Virus record (IMG/VR): IMGVR_UViG_3300002092_001784
Location: 192,001 to 256,000 of that record
Strand: one strand, 5' to 3'
Length of the DNA: 64,000 nucleotides
Source of the DNA: a virus
Taxonomy: Duplodnaviria; Caudoviricetes
The notes beneath the pieces are model-generated. The model worked only from the letters and a program-made list of their open reading frames with translations, ran no database searches and was not told the origin of the DNA. The translations under genes and the position numbers were made by a program. How positions within the stretch are numbered: the first letter of the stretch is position 1; the number at the start of each line of letters is the position of its first letter. This document shows positions 3,112 through 63,786 of this stretch, in pieces.

Positions 3112-5148
3112 ATGGCACTATCAACAACAAATAAAACTTTTAAGAATAAAGGTAAGGATATAAAGTATCTTAATAAGGATTTTGTAGATTTCAGAAATAA
3201 TTTGATTGAATTTTCAAAAACTTATTTTCCAAAAACCTATTCTGATTTTAATGAGACATCTCCGGGTATGATGTTTATTGAGATGGCATCATATATTGGT
3301 GATACTCTTTCATATTATATTGATGATACGTTAAAGGAATCATTAATGGTATATGCTGAAGATATTACCAATATCATTCCATTGGCACAGTATTTAGGGT
3401 ATAAACCCAAAGTAACATCACCTGCTGTAACTACGGTATCTGTATACCAATTAGTTCCATCAACTGGGGTAGGCGTAAATAATGTACCTGATTCTAATTA
3501 TTTTTTAAGAATAAGAGAAGGAATGGTTATGGCTTCCAAAACCAATTCTATAACATTTGTGACAACTGAAGTTGTTGATTTTTCGGATACGGTTAATAGA
3601 GAAATAACAGTGTATCAGAAAGATTCCATTACAGGTGATCCAACGTTATATTTGGTGAAAAAATATGCACAGGCGGTATCATCTACATTAAAAACAGCTA
3701 CATTTACTTTTACAAGTTATCAACCATTTCAATATATAGACCTTTCGGATACAAATGTAATACAAATTTTAGATGTTAGGGATTCAAACGGAAACAAATG
3801 GTATGAAGTTCCTTATTTGGCACAAGAGATGGTATTTATTGATCAGCCAAATACACAGGAAAATGATCCGGATTTGTATCAATTCAAAACAACAGTTCCG
3901 TTTATCTTAAAAACTATTAAAACTCCTAGAAGATTTGTAGTAAAGGTAAATTCAAATAGTACTACTACTATACAATTCGGAACAGGAGACCCATCGGCAA
4001 GTGATGAATTACTTATACCAAATTTGAAAAATGTTGGATTAGGATTACCTAATTCTATAAATAAACTTGATCAATCATATGATCCTACTAATTTTTTGAA
4101 TACAAGTACATATGGTACATCACCATCAAATACTACAATTACTGTTAAATATTATGTTGGCGGTGGTATAACATCAAATATACCAAAAGGAGATTTAACT
4201 CAAATAACATCTATTGTAGTTGATAATGATGTATCTACATATAGTGATTCTGAAAAGGCAACATTTAATAGTATACGAAATTCCGTAGCAGTGGATAATG
4301 AAGTACCGGGCGTTGGCGGTAGAAGTGGTGAGAATGTGGAAGAGATAAGACAAAATGCGTTGGCATATTTTGGTGCTCAAAACCGAGCGGTTACTGCTAA
4401 GGATTATCAAGTTAGGGTGTTATCAATGCCGTCTAAATATGGTTCTATTGCAAAAGTATATGCAACCGCTGATGGTACACTTGATAACAATTCCCCTGCT
4501 TCGATTTTAGCATCACCAAATAATTTACAAGAGTTTACCGATTTGGTATATAGTTATGTAAATAAGCCAGATTCTCAAGAATTATCATGGGGGCAGATTT
4601 CTGATAGTATTTCTCAATATTTGGTTGGAAAAACTACAAATAAATCTGAAAAAAATAATCCATTCGCTATAAATTTATATCTATTGGCGTATGATGGTGA
4701 TGGTCATTTAACTGCAACAAATATGGCAATTAAAGAAAATCTGAAAACATATTTGGGTGAATATAAAATATTAACAGATGGTATCAACGTAATTGATGGA
4801 TATATCGTTAATATTGGAGTTACTTTTGAAATTATTGCTTATAAAAATTACAATAAAAGTGAGGTAGTTGCAAATTGTATTTTAGCATTAAAGGATTACT
4901 TTAATATAGATAATTGGTCATTTAACCAAACTATTAATTTAAGTGAAATTGAATTGATGCTGGCAAATATTGAGGGAGTATCAACTGTACCTAAATTGGA
5001 AATTGATAATTTGTGTGGTGGTGTGTATTCTCCAAATTCATATAATGTATTGACCGCTACTAAAAATAAAATGATTTATCCATCACTTGATCCTTGTGTT
5101 TTTGAAGTTAAATTTCCAAATACTGATATAAAGGGGAGGGCTATATAA
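3112..5148 (+). CDS. gp6: Baseplate wedge subunit, gp6 / baseplate-J family
   Basis: YLNKDF..FR N-terminus, GMMFIEMASYIGD, AQYLGYKP, ENVEEIRQNALAYFGAQNRAVTAKDY hallmark. Confidence 0.85.
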   Translation: MALSTTNKTFKNKGKDIKYLNKDFVDFRNNLIEFSKTYFPKTYSDFNETSPGMMFIEMASYIGDTLSYYIDDTLKESLMVYAEDITNIIPLAQYLGYKPKVTSPAVTTVSVYQLVPSTGVGVNNVPDSNYFLRIREGMVMASKTNSITFVTTEVVDFSDTVNREITVYQKDSITGDPTLYLVKKYAQAVSSTLKTATFTFTSYQPFQYIDLSDTNVIQILDVRDSNGNKWYEVPYLAQEMVFIDQPNTQENDPDLYQFKTTVPFILKTIKTPRRFVVKVNSNSTTTIQFGTGDPSASDELLIPNLKNVGLGLPNSINKLDQSYDPTNFLNTSTYGTSPSNTTITVKYYVGGGITSNIPKGDLTQITSIVVDNDVSTYSDSEKATFNSIRNSVAVDNEVPGVGGRSGENVEEIRQNALAYFGAQNRAVTAKDYQVRVLSMPSKYGSIAKVYATADGTLDNNSPASILASPNNLQEFTDLVYSYVNKPDSQELSWGQISDSISQYLVGKTTNKSEKNNPFAINLYLLAYDGDGHLTATNMAIKENLKTYLGEYKILTDGINVIDGYIVNIGVTFEIIAYKNYNKSEVVANCILALKDYFNIDNWSFNQTINLSEIELMLANIEGVSTVPKLEIDNLCGGVYSPNSYNVLTATKNKMIYPSLDPCVFEVKFPNTDIKGRAI

Positions 5149-57259: not shown

Positions 57260-57859
57260 ATGCAACCAAAACTATTAATTGAAACAAGACTATTTGAAGG
57301 ACGAGTACAAGAAGATTCTGGCGGAAGGACTCTTGTAAAGGGTATTCTTCAGAGAGCTGATGCTGAAAACCAAAACGGTAGAAAGTACCCACGTCAGGTA
57401 TTAATGCGTGAAGCCAAAAAATACGAAACTCTAATTAAAGAACGTAGGGCTCTTGGTGAATTAGACCACCCAGATTCAACGGTTATCAATCTAAAGAACG
57501 TATCTCACAATATTAGAGAAATACATTGGGATGGGGATGATTTGTGTGGTACTATTGAAATTTTACCAACACCATCCGGCAATATTTTGAAGGAACTTCT
57601 TAAAGCAGGTATTCTATTGGGAATTTCTTCAAGAGGTATGGGTTCTACTCGTCAGTTAGAAGGTACAACAGTGGAAGTGCAAGATGATTTTGAATTAATT
57701 GCATGGGACTTTGTATCAAATCCATCTACACAAGGAGCATTTATGACGCCTGTAAATGAATCAGTAAATAGAGGACTTCAACAAATTGGAACTGATATTT
57801 GCGGAGAATATTGCAGAGCACAGGATTTAATGAGAGAAATTATAACAGAAATATCATAA
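57260..57859 (+). CDS. gp21: Prohead protease (T4 gp21-like)
   Basis: GILQRADAENQNGRKYP, ALGELDHPDS..INL.NVSH, LGISSRGMGS, WDFVSNPS. Confidence 0.92.
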   Translation: MQPKLLIETRLFEGRVQEDSGGRTLVKGILQRADAENQNGRKYPRQVLMREAKKYETLIKERRALGELDHPDSTVINLKNVSHNIREIHWDGDDLCGTIEILPTPSGNILKELLKAGILLGISSRGMGSTRQLEGTTVEVQDDFELIAWDFVSNPSTQGAFMTPVNESVNRGLQQIGTDICGEYCRAQDLMREIITEIS

Positions 57860-58485: not shown

Positions 58486-58930
58486 CTATGAAAAAGCAAA
58501 ATTCGTATCTAATAATGGAAGGTAGTGCTAATCCTAAAAATTTGAAAGAATCAGTGTTAACCGAAGATATTACACATGAAGTAATTTTACCATTATTACC
58601 ACTACTTAGTGTTATAGCTGGAGTGGGTATCGGCAGTTTTATCGGTGATTTGGACCTTGATAGGGGTATCATACAATCCTTAAAAGATTCTTGGAATGGA
58701 TATTTTAGAAACCGAGCTGTCAAAAAGATAGTGGACCGCATTAAAGATGATAAAGATGTTCAAGAATTTCTAAACCATCCAAGTAAACCCGGTTGGACAA
58801 AAATGCTAGTTACCAAACTTACATCTGAAGAAAAAAAATACCTATACAGTTTAACTCGAAATAAATTTTAACTATGAAAACGCAAAATTCGTATCTAATA
58901 ATGGAGGGTAGTGCTAACCCTAAGAACTTG
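58483..58930 (+). repeat. 62-nt dispersed repeat at starts of two adjacent genes (58483-58544 and 58869-58930)
   Basis: 57/62 nt identical; encodes MK(K/T)QNSYLIMEGSANPKNL. Confidence 0.9.
58488..58871 (+). CDS. Putative internal head protein with duplicated leader peptide
   Basis: Begins MKKQNSYLIMEGSANPKNL; then LKE and LTE sites and a hydrophobic stretch (VILPLLPLLSVIAGVGIG). Confidence 0.6.
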   Translation: MKKQNSYLIMEGSANPKNLKESVLTEDITHEVILPLLPLLSVIAGVGIGSFIGDLDLDRGIIQSLKDSWNGYFRNRAVKKIVDRIKDDKDVQEFLNHPSKPGWTKMLVTKLTSEEKKYLYSLTRNKF

Positions 58931-59407
58931 GTAAGTACTAAAACTAAAAAAGTTATCAAAGAAGGTGAAGACCACGAAGTATCTATGGCAGGAAACCAAT
59001 TAGATACTATTATAAAAGCAGCAACCGAATTGAAAGCCAAAATCGGAACTGATGAAAAAAATCTACCGGGATGGGTACAAGACCATATTTCTCAATCTGA
59101 AAACTTTATATCTCAAGCTAATAACGGTTATGGTGAAACTAATGAAGTAATTAAAAAGGGTAAATTTAACGAAGTATCTAATGGTGATTTTATAACACTT
59201 GATGTAAACGTTGGAGATACGGTAAAATTTTATACAAATACACCTGTGCAGAATGTTGGAACAACCGGAAAGGCTCAAACTGGAAAGGTTGTTAAAGTAG
59301 ATTCAACTACATTTACCGTAAAGGGTAATGATGGTAAGGAACATAAACTTCCAAAGAAATGGTACAAACATGCTACTTATTTACCATCTATTCTTAAAAA
59401 GGGGTAA
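58874..59407 (+). CDS. Putative internal head protein with duplicated leader peptide
   Basis: Begins MKTQNSYLIMEGSANPKNL; IKE|GEDHEVSMA...LPGWVQ module; FNE| then SH3-like module. Confidence 0.6.
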   Translation: MKTQNSYLIMEGSANPKNLVSTKTKKVIKEGEDHEVSMAGNQLDTIIKAATELKAKIGTDEKNLPGWVQDHISQSENFISQANNGYGETNEVIKKGKFNEVSNGDFITLDVNVGDTVKFYTNTPVQNVGTTGKAQTGKVVKVDSTTFTVKGNDGKEHKLPKKWYKHATYLPSILKKG

Positions 59408-59418
59408 TACTATAAAAC

Positions 59419-60246
59419 ATGGCAAAACTATTAAACGAATGTATAATTGTTTCTAAGAAATTTGGAAACGATATGGTTTTGGCAAAAAACAGAGATAGAG
59501 CATATAAGCCGCTCATAGAAGTGGTTCATACTTTGATGAATGGTATTGAAGTTGTGTATTTACATGATATTACAACCGATTGGAGTGAAGGTATGAATGA
59601 ATTGGGTATCGGTGTTGTTAATACTTCGTTGTTGGTAGGATATGATGAAAAAGAAAAACAAATCATATCTAAAACCGGTAAGAAATCAAAAGATGGTATT
59701 AAGATAAGAACTGCTCTTGGACAAAAAACATTATCAAAGGCATTATTATCGGTGGTTAAGTTTAATGGTGGTGTAAAGGGACACACTTTTGTGGCAGACC
59801 CTAACCATCTGATTACAGTAGAAATGACTTCGAAACATGCTCCTATAATCAAACAGCAAGACCCAACCAAATCATATGTAAGAACGAATCATGGACTAGC
59901 ACATCCAGATGCCGGATATACTGAAGGACCTGATTATAAAAGTTCAATAGTTCGTAGAGCATCTGCAAAGGCTGCAATTACAAAATTGAAAGATTGGAGA
60001 GATGAATTGAAAGCATTGAGAACTAATCGGTATTCGCATGATAATCCGAATAATATGAGTAGAGATACGGATAAAATGATGACAACCACACAGATGCAAT
60101 TAAATCTAACCCGTAAAATATTTACTCTAAACTATTTTGGAGACAGAGTTGAAGGATTCAAAGGAATACGAAGTGAATTACCATCGGATTATATGCCAAA
60201 AATACAAATAAAAATAAAAGATTTATCAGAAACTCAGAATAATTGA
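59419..60246 (+). CDS. Putative Ntn-hydrolase (peptidase C45 / acyltransferase-like) proenzyme
   Basis: E|CIIV...LAKNRDR...GMNELGIGVVN...VRTNH matches the C45/AAT pattern C...arNxD...GMNExG...TNH. Confidence 0.62.
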   Translation: MAKLLNECIIVSKKFGNDMVLAKNRDRAYKPLIEVVHTLMNGIEVVYLHDITTDWSEGMNELGIGVVNTSLLVGYDEKEKQIISKTGKKSKDGIKIRTALGQKTLSKALLSVVKFNGGVKGHTFVADPNHLITVEMTSKHAPIIKQQDPTKSYVRTNHGLAHPDAGYTEGPDYKSSIVRRASAKAAITKLKDWRDELKALRTNRYSHDNPNNMSRDTDKMMTTTQMQLNLTRKIFTLNYFGDRVEGFKGIRSELPSDYMPKIQIKIKDLSETQNN

Positions 60247-60278: not shown

Positions 60279-60755
60279 ATGCCCGCAGTATCAAAAGCAC
60301 AACAACATTTTATGGGTATGGTTCATGCTGCACAGAAAGGTGAAGAACCTGCAAGTCCCGAAGTAGCAAAAGTAGCTAAATCAATTGAGCCAAAAGCAGC
60401 AAAGGATTATGCATCAACATCAACTAAAAATCTACCAGACCATAAACTAAAAGAAGCGATTCGTAAGATATATAGAGAATATTTAAGGGAATGTTCAATG
60501 ACAGAATCACTAAACGAAGATGTTTCAGATATAAAAACTCCTATTTATTTCAAATCAAAAAAAGGAGTAAGTGGATTTGATACCGATACTACATTTTTTG
60601 TAAAAGATATGCCCGATTATGGAAATGTTAAGGTTTATCATTACCGTGGACGTTTGGAACAATTTATTTGGTTTGAAAAAGATAAATTAATAAGGCAATT
60701 TAAGAGTGGAGATTTCTATAAAGTTGATAAAAACGAATATAAACCCAATAACTAA
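60279..60755 (+). CDS. Putative internal head protein
   Basis: MPAVSKAQQHFMGMV...KNLP module followed by LKE, LRE, MTE, LNE sites and a second module. Confidence 0.6.
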   Translation: MPAVSKAQQHFMGMVHAAQKGEEPASPEVAKVAKSIEPKAAKDYASTSTKNLPDHKLKEAIRKIYREYLRECSMTESLNEDVSDIKTPIYFKSKKGVSGFDTDTTFFVKDMPDYGNVKVYHYRGRLEQFIWFEKDKLIRQFKSGDFYKVDKNEYKPNN

Positions 60756-60975: not shown

Positions 60976-62130
60976 ATGGCAAGTTCAAAACTATTAAAAG
61001 AAGCAATTGCTGATGCTAAAGCTGTGCGTGAAACTGCTATTGCCAATGCCAAAATCGCTCTCGAAGAAGCGTTTACTCCAAGACTTCAATCTATTCTTTC
61101 AAGAAAGCTACAAGCTGAAATTGAAGATAACGATGATGAAGATTTGGATGATGTAAACGAAGAAAATGATGCATCAAGCGAAATCGGAAAAGGTGATAAC
61201 AAAACTCCGGCTATTAAAGCAAATTCAGCACAAACAGACCTAAGTGGTATTTCTAAAACAGGAGATGCACAGGGTAGTGAATTAGATGATTATGACAAAG
61301 TTAAAGACCTTACTGAAGGTGATGATGACTTTGGAGATGATGACACTGATTTGGATACCGATGATGACACTGATTTGGATACCGATGGTGATGACACCGA
61401 TTGGGATGCTGATGATACCGATGATGACCAAGACGAAGATGATTTAGATTTAGAATCTATTATTAGAGAATTGGAAGATGGTATGGATGATGATACCGAT
61501 GGGTATTCGGATGATACTGAAGTAGATGAAGCAGATGAAAATGAAGATGGCGTAACCGATGATGTAACTGGTGCAACAAATCCATACACAGAAGGTGATG
61601 ACACTGATTTTGATACCGATGGTGACACCGAAGGCGAAGATGATGATATTGATTTAGATGAAATTCTTCGTGAAATGGGATATGGTGATGATGAAGATGG
61701 TGAAGAAGCTCCTGTTGAGGATGATGATACTGCTGAAGAATTAGCAGCTACTCAAAATGAATTAAAAGAAGCTATGAAAACTATTCATTCATTACGCAAA
61801 ACCATCAATGAAGTGAATTTATTGAACGCAAAATTATTATTCGCAAACAAATTGTTCCGTGGTTATAATCTAACTAACGAACAAAAAGTAAAAGTTGTTG
61901 AAAACTTGGACAGAACTTCATCTGTAAGAGAAGTTAAGTTAGTTTATTCAACTCTTTGTGAATCAATGAAATTCTCTGGTACTCAAAAGAAACAATCTGT
62001 AAAGAGAACTATTTCTGAAGGATTGGCTTCTAAACCACAGAAATCTACCGCACCTAAAAAAGAAATTCTTTCAGAGGGTGACATGATGGCTAAAAGATTC
62101 CAAGAATTAGCAGGAATCACTTCAAAATAA
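60976..62130 (+). CDS. Prohead scaffold/core protein (gp22-like)
   Basis: LKEAIADAKAVRETAIANAK N-terminus, very acidic middle, EVNLLNAKLL C-terminal coil; directly upstream of the capsid gene. Confidence 0.75.
   Translation: MASSKLLKEAIADAKAVRETAIANAKIALEEAFTPRLQSILSRKLQAEIEDNDDEDLDDVNEENDASSEIGKGDNKTPAIKANSAQTDLSGISKTGDAQGSELDDYDKVKDLTEGDDDFGDDDTDLDTDDDTDLDTDGDDTDWDADDTDDDQDEDDLDLESIIRELEDGMDDDTDGYSDDTEVDEADENEDGVTDDVTGATNPYTEGDDTDFDTDGDTEGEDDDIDLDEILREMGYGDDEDGEEAPVEDDDTAEELAATQNELKEAMKTIHSLRKTINEVNLLNAKLLFANKLFRGYNLTNEQKVKVVENLDRTSSVREVKLVYSTLCESMKFSGTQKKQSVKRTISEGLASKPQKSTAPKKEILSEGDMMAKRFQELAGITSK
61336..61383 (+). repeat. Perfect 2 x 24-nt in-frame repeat (DDDTDLDT) in scaffold
   Basis: GATGATGACACTGATTTGGATACC twice, degenerate copies following. 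Confidence 0.85.
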
Positions 62131-62154: not shown

Positions 62155-63786
62155 ATGGCAAATTTTGACTTATCTAAATTGATGGAAGGCAAAAACCCAC
62201 AAAGCGTAATGTTGGCAGAAACTCGTCAACTTAAAGGTAAATGGGCGAAAACAGGTCTTCTTGAAGGATTGAAAGAAAGAGATCAACACTCTATGGCAGT
62301 GTTGTTAGAAAACCAAGCAAAACAATTGCTTGATGAGGCAACCCAAACTGGTACATCTGCACACTCAGAAGAGTGGAGTGGTGTAGCTCTTCCTTTGGTT
62401 CGCCGTATTTTTGGTGAAATTGCATCGAAAGAGTTCGTTTCGGTTCAACCTATGAACTTACCTTCCGGTCTTATTTTCTACCTTGACTTCAAATATGGTT
62501 CTGCACAAGGAGCACCTGGACAATATGGTGGAAAATCACTTTTTGGTGGTACTAACATAACCGGTTCAGCAACTAACTTTGGTAGAACTAACGCAGCTGT
62601 TAATGGTTTATACGGTGAAGGTCGTTATACCTATTCAGTAAATGATGGAACTGCCGCTACAGTAGCTATTGCTTCTGCTGCTTCTGCTTCTTGGGCAGAT
62701 GTAGGTTTTAACAATACGTTATCAGCTTCTATTGCTGCTAATCAAATTGCTAAACTTTCTATTACAAAATCAGCTATTAGTGCAACCGCTGATGTTGATG
62801 CAGTTCGTGCATACACCGCAACTGATTCACTTATCGTTGCCAATCTTAACGAATTTAACTATTACAACGCATCTTTAGATAATATCGTACTTTTTGTATC
62901 TGCATCTAAAACAGATATGGCTGCATTGGTTAATGGTACTATTGATTCAATTGATTATTCAGTTGTTCCTACCGATTACAATCGTGGTGACTTTGAAGAT
63001 AAAACCGCACCAAGTGCAGGTAACACAACAACTGCATTGGATATTCCAGAAATTGATCTTGAATTGAAATCAGAGGCCATCGTTGCTAAGACTCGTAAGT
63101 TGAAAGCAGTATGGACACCTGAACTTGCACAGGACTTAAACGCTTACCACTCAATCGATGCTGAAGCAGAATTAACTTCAATGTTATCCGATTATATTTC
63201 TTTGGAAATTGATTTGGAAATCCTTGATATGTTAAAATCTAACGCTTTAACTACTGATTACTGGTCAGCAACAGTTGGTGAAGAATACAATAACGGTGTT
63301 TGGACTGGTGGACAATCTTCAATGGCATACCAAAAATCAACTTGGTTTCAAACCCTTGGAATCAAATTGAACAAAGTATCTAATAAGATTCACCAATTAA
63401 CACTTCGTGGTGGAGCTAACTTCGTAGTTGCTTCTCCTGATGTATGTACTATTTTGGAATCTATTCCTGGATTCTTAGTAAGTGCTGAGAAAGATGCATT
63501 ACAGTTCGCTGCAGGTGTATCTCAAGTAGGTGCATTGAGCAATCGCTACACCATCTACAAAAATCCTTATATGACTTCTAACGAAATCTTAATGGGATAC
63601 AGAGGAAACAACTTCCTTGAGACAGGTGCAGTTTACGCTCCATATGTACCATTGATTATGACTCCTTTGGTTTACGATCCTCAAAATTTTACTCCGAGGA
63701 GGGGTGTCATGACTCGTTACGCCAAGAAAATGGTGAGAAGCGAGTACTACGGAAAAATCTACATCAAAGATTTGAACACTATCTAA
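62155..63786 (+). CDS. gp23: Major capsid protein (T4 gp23-like)
   Basis: MAVLLENQ, LPLVRR, VQPMNLPSGLIFYL, IVAKTRKLKAVWTPELAQDL.AYH.IDAE.EL, YAPYVPL, PRRGVMTRY. Confidence 0.95.
   Translation: MANFDLSKLMEGKNPQSVMLAETRQLKGKWAKTGLLEGLKERDQHSMAVLLENQAKQLLDEATQTGTSAHSEEWSGVALPLVRRIFGEIASKEFVSVQPMNLPSGLIFYLDFKYGSAQGAPGQYGGKSLFGGTNITGSATNFGRTNAAVNGLYGEGRYTYSVNDGTAATVAIASAASASWADVGFNNTLSASIAANQIAKLSITKSAISATADVDAVRAYTATDSLIVANLNEFNYYNASLDNIVLFVSASKTDMAALVNGTIDSIDYSVVPTDYNRGDFEDKTAPSAGNTTTALDIPEIDLELKSEAIVAKTRKLKAVWTPELAQDLNAYHSIDAEAELTSMLSDYISLEIDLEILDMLKSNALTTDYWSATVGEEYNNGVWTGGQSSMAYQKSTWFQTLGIKLNKVSNKIHQLTLRGGANFVVASPDVCTILESIPGFLVSAEKDALQFAAGVSQVGALSNRYTIYKNPYMTSNEILMGYRGNNFLETGAVYAPYVPLIMTPLVYDPQNFTPRRGVMTRYAKKMVRSEYYGKIYIKDLNTI

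Follow-up and report, generated by a model that had tools for sequence, protein, structure and literature searches.

How does an enzyme that depends on a free N-terminal cysteine become active, when its gene places that cysteine behind a short peptide? The question is raised by a gene in a 64,000-nucleotide stretch of DNA (hereafter the window; positions 192001-256000 of the 266,153-bp virus record IMGVR_UViG_3300002092_001784, from a T4-like phage), the 275-amino-acid product of which begins MAKLLNE|C. Hydrolases of the N-terminal nucleophile (Ntn) class lack activity until the peptide bond that ties up the nucleophile's amino group is broken (PMC9140057), and T4-type prohead proteases recognise the short motif L/I-x-E, cleaving behind its Glu (PMC9026906, PMC5694885). 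A sequence-only reading of the window had proposed that the protein is an Ntn zymogen activated by the prohead protease. From the analysis described here it seems likely that a phage-specific Ntn amidohydrolase is made as a precursor, opened by the Peptidase_S77 (S77) protease in the prohead and delivered with the DNA. The features of the gene itself are as follows.

59419..60246, plus strand: precursor gene of a predicted Cys-Ntn hydrolase, phage-specific family, 275 amino acids (open reading frame (ORF), AlphaFold2 (AF2) model, Foldseek, the structure aligner VIA, 644 homologues)
59419..59439, plus strand: leader MAKLLNE, seven residues, covering the nucleophile; L5-N6-E7 agrees with the site of T4-type proteases, L/I-x-E with cleavage behind the Glu (sequence)
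59440..59442, plus strand: codon of Cys8 (TGT), predicted N-terminal nucleophile of the mature enzyme (invariance, model superposition)
59485..59499, plus strand: K23-N24-R25-D26-R27 ('KNRDR'), second strand, 15-19 residues past the Cys (invariant in alignments A1, A2 and A3)
59590..59607, plus strand: G58-M-N60-E-L-G63, with N60 as candidate oxyanion-hole residue (columns G58, N60 and G63 invariant in A1, A2 and A3)
59881..59892, plus strand: conserved motif R155-T156-N157-H158 (in A1, R155, T156 and N157 invariant and H158 at least 90% conserved; in A2, N and H invariant)

The leader is no longer than MAKLLNE, because the ORF begins at the first start codon past an in-frame stop. A later start at Met19 was considered and rejected, since it would remove the invariant C8-A22 segment. 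The arrangement described in the sequence-only reading, MAKLLNE|C8 followed by AKNRD (22-26), GMNELG (58-63) and RTNH (155-158), was confirmed in the ORF, and the motifs proved largely invariant in homologues.

The AF2 model, built on 26 homologues, has a mean predicted local distance difference test score (pLDDT) of 84 and a predicted template modelling score (pTM) of 0.87; pLDDT falls below 50 only at residues 1-5, in two loops and at the C-terminus. A Foldseek comparison with the Protein Data Bank (PDB) gave acyl-CoA:isopenicillin N acyltransferase (AAT, 2x1c) as the top match (E 1.6e-8), and the other top matches were N-acylethanolamine acid amidase (NAAA), bile salt hydrolases (BSH), penicillin V acylases (PVA), phospholipase-B-like proteins and a C69 dipeptidase. 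There were 87 PDB matches at E <= 0.001, the best 50 of which were Cys-Ntn enzymes plus the uncharacterised structural-genomics protein 3gvz. VIA returned Z scores of 16-20.5 to Cys-Ntn hydrolases over 197-232 aligned residues, and set residue 8 of the model opposite the first residue of the mature chain in AAT (103), NAAA (126), acid ceramidase (143), BSH (2), PVA (1) and TANGO2 (2). By all three approaches the model has the four-layer alpha-beta-beta-alpha fold of the Ntn superfamily (MEROPS clan PB), and the VIA superposition together with the invariance of the Cys puts the nucleophile at the very N-terminus of the mature chain, where the first beta-strand begins. A removable N-terminal extension is also a property of the family, 213 of 236 homologues having a leader or upstream domain. 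The fold rules out a papain-like or CHAP peptidase. The sequence-only reading had suggested a structure search against enzymes of the C45/C59/C69 type as a check, and its expectation of an Ntn fold with Cys8 as N-terminal nucleophile was borne out by the prediction and the two structure comparisons.

At the level of sequence, searches of Pfam (E <= 0.1), PHROGs and the PDB gave no match for the window protein, and a 61-sequence profile run against the PDB gave spurious matches only. The models for CBAH (PF02275)/C59, Peptidase_C69 and TANGO2 (PF05742) did not match the window protein either; the TANGO2 model matched one of 26 relatives (E 0.011). Six of the 26 matched the AAT model (PF03417) weakly (best E 8.8e-6), with P0155 at 25.0 bits against a cut-off of 23.2 and P0150 at 22.7 bits, and the window protein did not reach the gathering score. 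The window protein is not a sequence-level member of C45, C59, C69 or TANGO2, and its likeness to them is one of fold; by fold and nucleophile position, it is a predicted Cys-Ntn hydrolase.

In alignment A1 (26 homologues at >=50% identity), no variation occurs at C8, K23, N24, R25, D26, R27, G58, N60, G63, R155, T156 and N157, and conservation of E7 is at least 90%. Across A1, A2 and A3, which extend down to about 40% identity, Cys8 is invariant together with about 25 other positions, including K23-N-R-D-R27, N60, H122 and N157. The position of KNRDR presumably corresponds to the Arg/Asp 16-19 residues past the nucleophile in C45/C59/C89 and to the NRDE of TANGO2. R25, D26, N60 and N157 are equated with catalytic residues on position and conservation only, because the Pfam, PHROG and PDB sequence searches were empty.

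What stands directly before the cysteine was counted in 236 homologues with a locatable core. Two classes were distinguished, class A with [LIV]-x-E before the Cys and class B with [KR]-x-[AGS]. Glu occupies position -1 in 145 homologues, with L (94), I (36) or V (13) at -3 in 143 of them; the other two have M and T, one each. Class B accounts for 64, a Met-Cys start for 23, and the remaining four are LND, LGQ, RLV and one mis-hit. Within the Glu class, position -2 and all residues upstream vary freely; leader length goes from four residues (MINE, stop-bounded) to more than 400, fused forms having N-terminal domains of 190-660 residues, and the fusions keep the same tripeptide. The junction is FLNE|C in the cultured phage MA9V-1, and MAKLLNE|C in the window has the L/I-x-E end of T4-type head-cargo propeptides (PMC9026906, PMC5694885). 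The motif [LIV]-x-E occurs at about 1.5% of positions in the proteome of the window genome, and the signal in these sequences is its exact abutment to the nucleophile together with its family-wide conservation. The LNE site had earlier been read as independent support for an x-x-E cleavage rule; this is weak for a single sequence and holds for the family (143/145).

The Met-Cys forms have at least three origins on the domain tree and occur also in phages with S77. Their existence indicates that the leader is not needed for folding, and some lineages would seem to use a constitutively unmasked enzyme, presumably after removal of the methionine.

If the capsid protease made the cut, the tripeptide should be expected to follow the protease, and the virus records behind the Ntn loci were typed for protease families. 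S77 was found in 14 of 24 records with [LIV]-x-E|C and in all seven near-complete (>=90%) class-A genomes (the window genome, L011, L067, L026, L016, L181 and MA9V-1), which span at least three Ntn clades; in the window genome, the S77 gene lies at 57260-57859. S77 was absent from all 13 records with [KR]-x-[AGS]|C (three had their class separately verified), among them five that are 88-100% complete or have terminal repeats (222-375 kb). Gp23-type capsid protein was likewise not found in two tested class-B records, which are 79-88% complete. The class-B record L084 carries a gene for a 501-amino-acid capsid protease 2 kb downstream of its Ntn-bearing polyvalent gene (polyvalent meaning several unrelated effector domains in one polypeptide). 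Its matches are a 'head maturation protease' PHROG and, among capsid maturation proteases, those of Bacillus phage G, Rhodococcus phage E3, cluster-C mycobacteriophages and Tunturiibacter phage Tunturi_5. The phage-G-type protease was found in four of five further class-B records, including all three that are >=90% complete, and in none of five complete class-A genomes. A Fisher test on the near-complete records gave p = 0.0013, a figure inflated by relatedness.

No S78 model matched in the class-B records; S80 models did not match there either, and this blank is uninformative, since the S80 controls also gave no match. An attempt to read class-B cut sites from the capsid protein was dropped, the major capsid protein being short and HK97-type (290 amino acids, weak Pfam match) and without an obvious propeptide. 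In one record (G033:C1:218456-220282; L242, L243), the phage-G-type protease match falls in two stretches about 1.2 kb apart within one 945-amino-acid frame, which suggests an in-frame insertion (an intein or an extra domain).

The order of descent was taken from a quick maximum-likelihood tree (IQ-TREE) of 124 domains, with support from the Shimodaira-Hasegawa-like approximate likelihood-ratio test (SH-aLRT). All class-B sequences lie in one supported clade (SH-aLRT 97), which also holds a fully supported eight-member Glu-class subclade of large fusion proteins. The loci of this subclade have S77 on three of five contig fragments, and Gp23 where tested. The tripeptide thus follows the protease and not the descent of the domain, because a Glu-class subclade nested within the class-B clade lies on S77/Gp23 contigs. 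MA9V-1 falls in a further Glu-class clade and has an S77 domain, in a protein annotated by its authors as 'Prohead core protein serine protease' (PMC10537231). This domain (L235, OR050627.1 126606-126944) lies inside a 1,349-amino-acid frame (the authors' ORF151), compared with about 200 amino acids for T4-type proteases, and a frame of that length indicates that the protease is fused with something else, a head protein.

A second line of evidence comes from N-terminal tags on other proteins of the same genomes. Two complete class-B genomes were assembled from regions, G018 (375,691 bp; L244-L263) and G030 (296,642 bp; L264-L279). In G018, 23 scattered proteins (with starts at, for example, 1439, 19013, 46164, 95434, 145302, 191916 and 314230) have a common N-terminal tag of about 22 residues, MRRSASE(I/V)I..LE.R(I/V)ARLE(R/K)QA. 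The rest of their sequences falls into 21 separate similarity groups, and the conserved part of the tag ends in [KR]-x-[AS] in 22 of the 23. G030 has seven mutually unrelated proteins (starts at 5003, 76524, 81668, 83000, 203460, 220299 and 220868) with the variant tag MRHLTASQKIAQLE.RIA.LEK.(A/G), six of which end in [KR]-x-[AG]; relative to G018, the tag sequence is lineage-specific. In these 22 and six tags the conserved part ends LE[KR]x[AGS], with the same tripeptide that precedes the Cys of class-B Ntn proteins. Where a class-B Ntn protein has a longer leader or an internal junction, the sequence is often R(V/I)A(S/A)R(Y/F/H)...[KR]-x-A|C, resembling the tails of the tags. The window genome has tags of the MIKLKxLLxE family and the tag MK(K/T)QNSYLIME. 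Only the K-L-L-x-E end of MIKLKxLLxE recurs in the Ntn leader, which has seven residues, as against about 10 for a capsid-targeting sequence common to other cargo, and which differs from the neighbouring MK(K/T)QNSYLIME. In both lineages, the residues that mask the nucleophile would then be the end of the presumed capsid-cargo tag, and the G018 tag is a candidate capsid-targeting tag, with a candidate cleavage motif for the phage-G-type capsid protease.

The mechanism proposed for the window protein runs as follows. MAKLLNE, attached to the amino group of the catalytic Cys8, would keep the precursor inactive while it enters the prohead. T4 gp21 is active only after completion of the prohead (PMC9958956), and takes off N-terminal propeptides behind a Glu, 7 (Alt) to 65 residues in length, including those of IPI-III (PMC9026906). 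The S77 protease of the window (57260-57859), if likewise active only in assembled proheads, would cut Glu7|Cys8, freeing the leader and making the alpha-amino/thiol pair that Ntn catalysis needs. Activity would thereby be limited to copies loaded into the head, and the enzyme is probably switched on in the capsid alone. The mature enzyme would be kept in the head and, like T4 Alt and the internal proteins, exit together with the DNA when the next cell is infected. Cleavage by gp21, packaging and delivery are what we infer from sequence, as is activity confined to the mature virion or to the time after injection. The earlier claim of activation by the prohead protease is strongly supported by the covariation of tripeptide and protease; it stands as a prediction rather than a demonstration as far as cleavage by gp21 itself is concerned. 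On the wider proposal, the balance in our judgement is about even: that the whole viral Ntn family gave up self-activation, and that the capsid protease of the owner phage makes the cut ([LIV]-x-E| for S77, [KR]-x-[AGS]| for the phage-G-type enzyme), so that the hydrolase is licensed in the capsid and armed in the next host.

Several observations weigh against these proposals. A Glu before the Cys is chemically compatible with self-processing, and B. subtilis PurF has one. The leader motif alone is weak evidence, because [LIV]-x-E is common near N-termini: in the window genome, [LIVM]-x-E ends at residues 4-15 in 84 of 292 ORFs (29%), as against 47-72 (16-25%) in later 12-residue windows. Leaders that have only 4-7 residues do not reach the length of the T4 capsid targeting sequence (10 residues) and leave entry into the prohead unexplained, and in most relatives the Ntn gene is more than 10 kb from the head module. 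The Met-Cys forms in S77 phages imply that latency is not obligatory. Because each of the two motif classes largely corresponds to one big phage lineage, the independent switches are few, at least two or three being forced by supported branches of what is a quick tree only. For the sole cultured carriers, MA9V-1 and MA9V-2, protein analysis consists of sodium dodecyl sulphate-polyacrylamide gel electrophoresis only. Finally, Ntn hydrolases are described as universally self-processing (PMC9140057).

This last point is the basis of the best-surviving alternative, classical Ntn autoproteolysis, in which Cys8 itself would attack the Glu7-Cys8 bond independently of gp21, and [LIV]-x-E would be a structural need of self-cleavage or a tag for capsid loading only. 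All known Ntn hydrolases are reported to process themselves, the short propeptides of class II amidotransferases and PVA are removed autocatalytically (PMC9140057), and the full catalytic set for self-cleavage is conserved in the present family. Against it, domains with a common invariant core (C, KNRDR, N, H) and 37-51% identity carry chemically opposite residues at -1 (Glu versus Ala/Gly/Ser) and at -3 (aliphatic versus Lys/Arg). The choice at these positions tracks the capsid protease and not the domain tree, each tripeptide is the end of the cargo tags of its own lineage, and the Met-Cys forms indicate that folding needs no leader. The covariation thus argues for cutting in trans by a head protease rather than classical self-cleavage, which we consider unlikely.

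A clearly less probable alternative is a cytoplasmic enzyme that is never packaged, the leader being cut outside the capsid by the protease or by a host peptidase, or tuning expression, and the location in the head module being incidental. The distance from the head genes in most relatives would agree with it, as would a leader shorter than the T4 capsid targeting sequence, the leaderless forms in T4-like phages and the commonness of [LIVM]-x-E near N-termini. T4-type prohead proteases are, however, reported to be active only in assembled proheads (PMC9958956). In addition, P3 and P1 are strictly conserved and covary with the type of protease, and relatives are embedded in polyvalent, cargo-like proteins beside capsid and protease genes. 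Least credible of all is a self-cleaving module, or a non-catalytic structural or pseudo-enzyme component of the head, rather than a hydrolase of a foreign substrate: in some polyproteins the domain lies at junctions where a cut at the Cys would part modules, but about 25 positions including catalytic-type residues are invariant in all three alignments, and self-cleavage of the stand-alone forms of 260-300 amino acids would separate nothing, since they would shed just 4-7 residues.

Under the preferred proposal of activation by the S77 protease, the surroundings of the gene in the window are of interest.

57260..57859, plus strand: prohead protease of T4 gp21 type, Peptidase_S77, proposed activator (PF03420 E 7.9e-27; phrog_207 E 1.6e-52)
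58488-58871 and 58874-59407, plus strand: two adjoining internal-protein-like cargo genes, common leader MK(K/T)QNSYLIME, then GSANPKNL (translations; analogy with the T4 capsid targeting sequence, PMC9026906)
60976..62130, plus strand: acidic scaffold-like protein in the gp22 position, start MASSKLLKE|A (position and composition only)
62155..63786, plus strand: major capsid protein, Gp23 family (PF07068 E 2.5e-75)

The Ntn gene sits between the S77 protease and the scaffold and capsid genes, beside the two tagged internal-protein-like genes; the genome has 34% G+C, and nearly all window genes are on the plus strand. The N-terminus of the S77 protease itself (57260-57283) reads MQPKLLIE|T, with an L-I-E site at residue 8. 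It resembles the LIE-9 site at which T4 gp21 cleaves nine N-terminal residues from itself (PMC9026906, PMC9958956). The major capsid protein has several [LIVM]-x-E sites within its first 61 residues, including L59-D-E61|A, and in close relatives the genes after the Ntn gene carry (L/I)-x-E leaders. No Pfam or PHROG family matched the products of 58488-58871, 58874-59407 or 60976-62130. The first two differ beyond their common leader and look like T4 internal-protein genes with a capsid targeting sequence.

Other small genes lie close by. At 60279-60755, a 158-amino-acid protein has a weak DUF3008 match and strong matches to PHROGs without known function (phrog_26015 E 2.4e-20), and a homologue of it accompanies the Ntn gene in some close relatives (L002, L003, L005). 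In the closest relatives (L002 9694-10008, L004 9685-10008, L007 9696-10004), a hydrophobic ORF of 102-107 amino acids, which probably encodes a membrane protein, shares 4-8 bases with the beginning of the Ntn gene, an overlap which suggests translational coupling. In the window, its place is held by the tagged gene at 58874-59407.

The Ntn family comprises 644 homologues at E <= 0.001 in a word-indexed search and 474 cluster representatives in an exhaustive search, and is almost only viral. Its ESM Atlas clusters are 96-100% viral, and the nearest cellular clusters (TM 0.65-0.71) are the TANGO2, 'linear amide C-N hydrolase' and AAT families. A search of 50,697 phage records gave the Chryseobacterium phages MA9V-1 and MA9V-2 as the only carriers. 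Distant Met-Cys members (L202-L208, L215-L220, L226; marine viral contigs) have 30-34% identity, 350-467 amino acids and a C-terminal extension, and occur in T4-like phages with an S77 protease (records of L205, L206 and L209). The feature-space neighbours in ESM Atlas include Bacillota 'conjugal transfer protein' clusters with CBAH/AAT Ntn domains, a hint only that conjugative elements also use Cys-Ntn hydrolases.

The window protein has a single domain in its 275 amino acids; many relatives are polyvalent. Their fusion partners are RNA ligase, CCA/polyA polymerase, HAD-SAK, 2H phosphoesterase, topoisomerase IB, InPase, SOD and a Zeta-like kinase, with a faint ART-PolyVal match, and the fused proteins reach 2,792 amino acids and lie beside capsid genes. 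In Pfam scans of the fusion partners in class A, Zeta-toxin-like P-loop and cytidylyltransferase-like matches were almost all that came up, and they gave no clue to the substrate. The partners seem to point to a setting of host takeover or counter-defence and not to a particular reaction. Enzymes with the nearest folds take acyl-amides of small molecules and lipids, or dipeptides, as substrates. Judged only from AAT, NAAA, acid ceramidase and BSH/PVA among them, the substrate is probably a non-protein acyl-amide or another small linear amide.

In full-text literature searches, no paper was found to connect Ntn hydrolases with prohead proteases or with the head cargo of phages. The parts are known, namely the Ntn zymogen, gp21-processed cargo and polyvalent effectors; what would be new is an activating cut delegated to the capsid protease, with lineage-specific motifs. 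If true, this would be an exception to the definition of Ntn hydrolases by self-activation found in reviews (PMC9140057). It would also be a case of an enzyme licensed by capsid maturation, harmless in the producing cell and armed in the receiving cell, and would add an unrecognised enzyme class to the injected cargo and polyvalent effectors of large phages. The class-B data, if correct, would give the cleavage motif of the phage-G-type protease and an undescribed tag system (MRRSASEIIRNLE.RIARLE[KR]QA-type) in jumbo phages of 220-375 kb. The candidate motif and tag would help to predict head cargo in uncultured jumbo phages, and an activation step of this kind could be built into T4-style tools for packaging proteins. 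The main strength of the proposal is the two-way covariation, and the prediction can be tested in the cultured phage MA9V-1.

Among known enzymes, AAT (PF03417, C45), NAAA and acid ceramidase (C89), BSH/PVA (C59) and TANGO2 have the same alpha-beta-beta-alpha fold and blocked precursor as the window protein. In AAT, NAAA, acid ceramidase, BSH, PVA and TANGO2, as in the window protein, the catalytic Cys comes first in the mature chain and an Asn/Arg/Asp cluster follows 16-19 residues on. One difference lies in the blocking peptide, which in the window family ends in what looks like a viral protease site, and in the AAT group ends in a small residue or is the large alpha-subunit of self-processing enzymes.

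Polyvalent proteins are thought to be delivered with the DNA (Iyer et al. 2017, PMC5512222). Relatives of the window domain are fused in the same manner, whereas the window protein stands alone. The Ntn domain has no occurrence in that survey, which proposes zincin-like metallopeptidase domains for processing (PMC5512222).

The prohead proteases of giant phages offer a parallel for the cleavage motifs. phiKZ gp175 cuts at S/A/G-x-E and SPN3US gp245 at A-x-E, and in each case one short motif per protease is common to many head-cargo propeptides, as proposed here (PMC5694885). These proteases all cut after Glu, whereas the class-B phages have a phage-G-type protease and tags that end in [KR]-x-[AGS], which the searches made for this analysis did not bring up.

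A counterpart of the window leader is found in T4 itself. The propeptides of Alt (seven residues) and IPI-III end in L/I-x-E and are removed by the S77 protease in the prohead (PMC9026906, PMC9958956). These are non-structural enzymes and effectors that are carried in the head and ejected with the DNA, and the window gene lies among head and tagged cargo genes. In T4 the cut only trims the cargo; in the window protein, for which packaging is an inference, the same cut would create the catalytic residue, and processing would thereby amount to activation.

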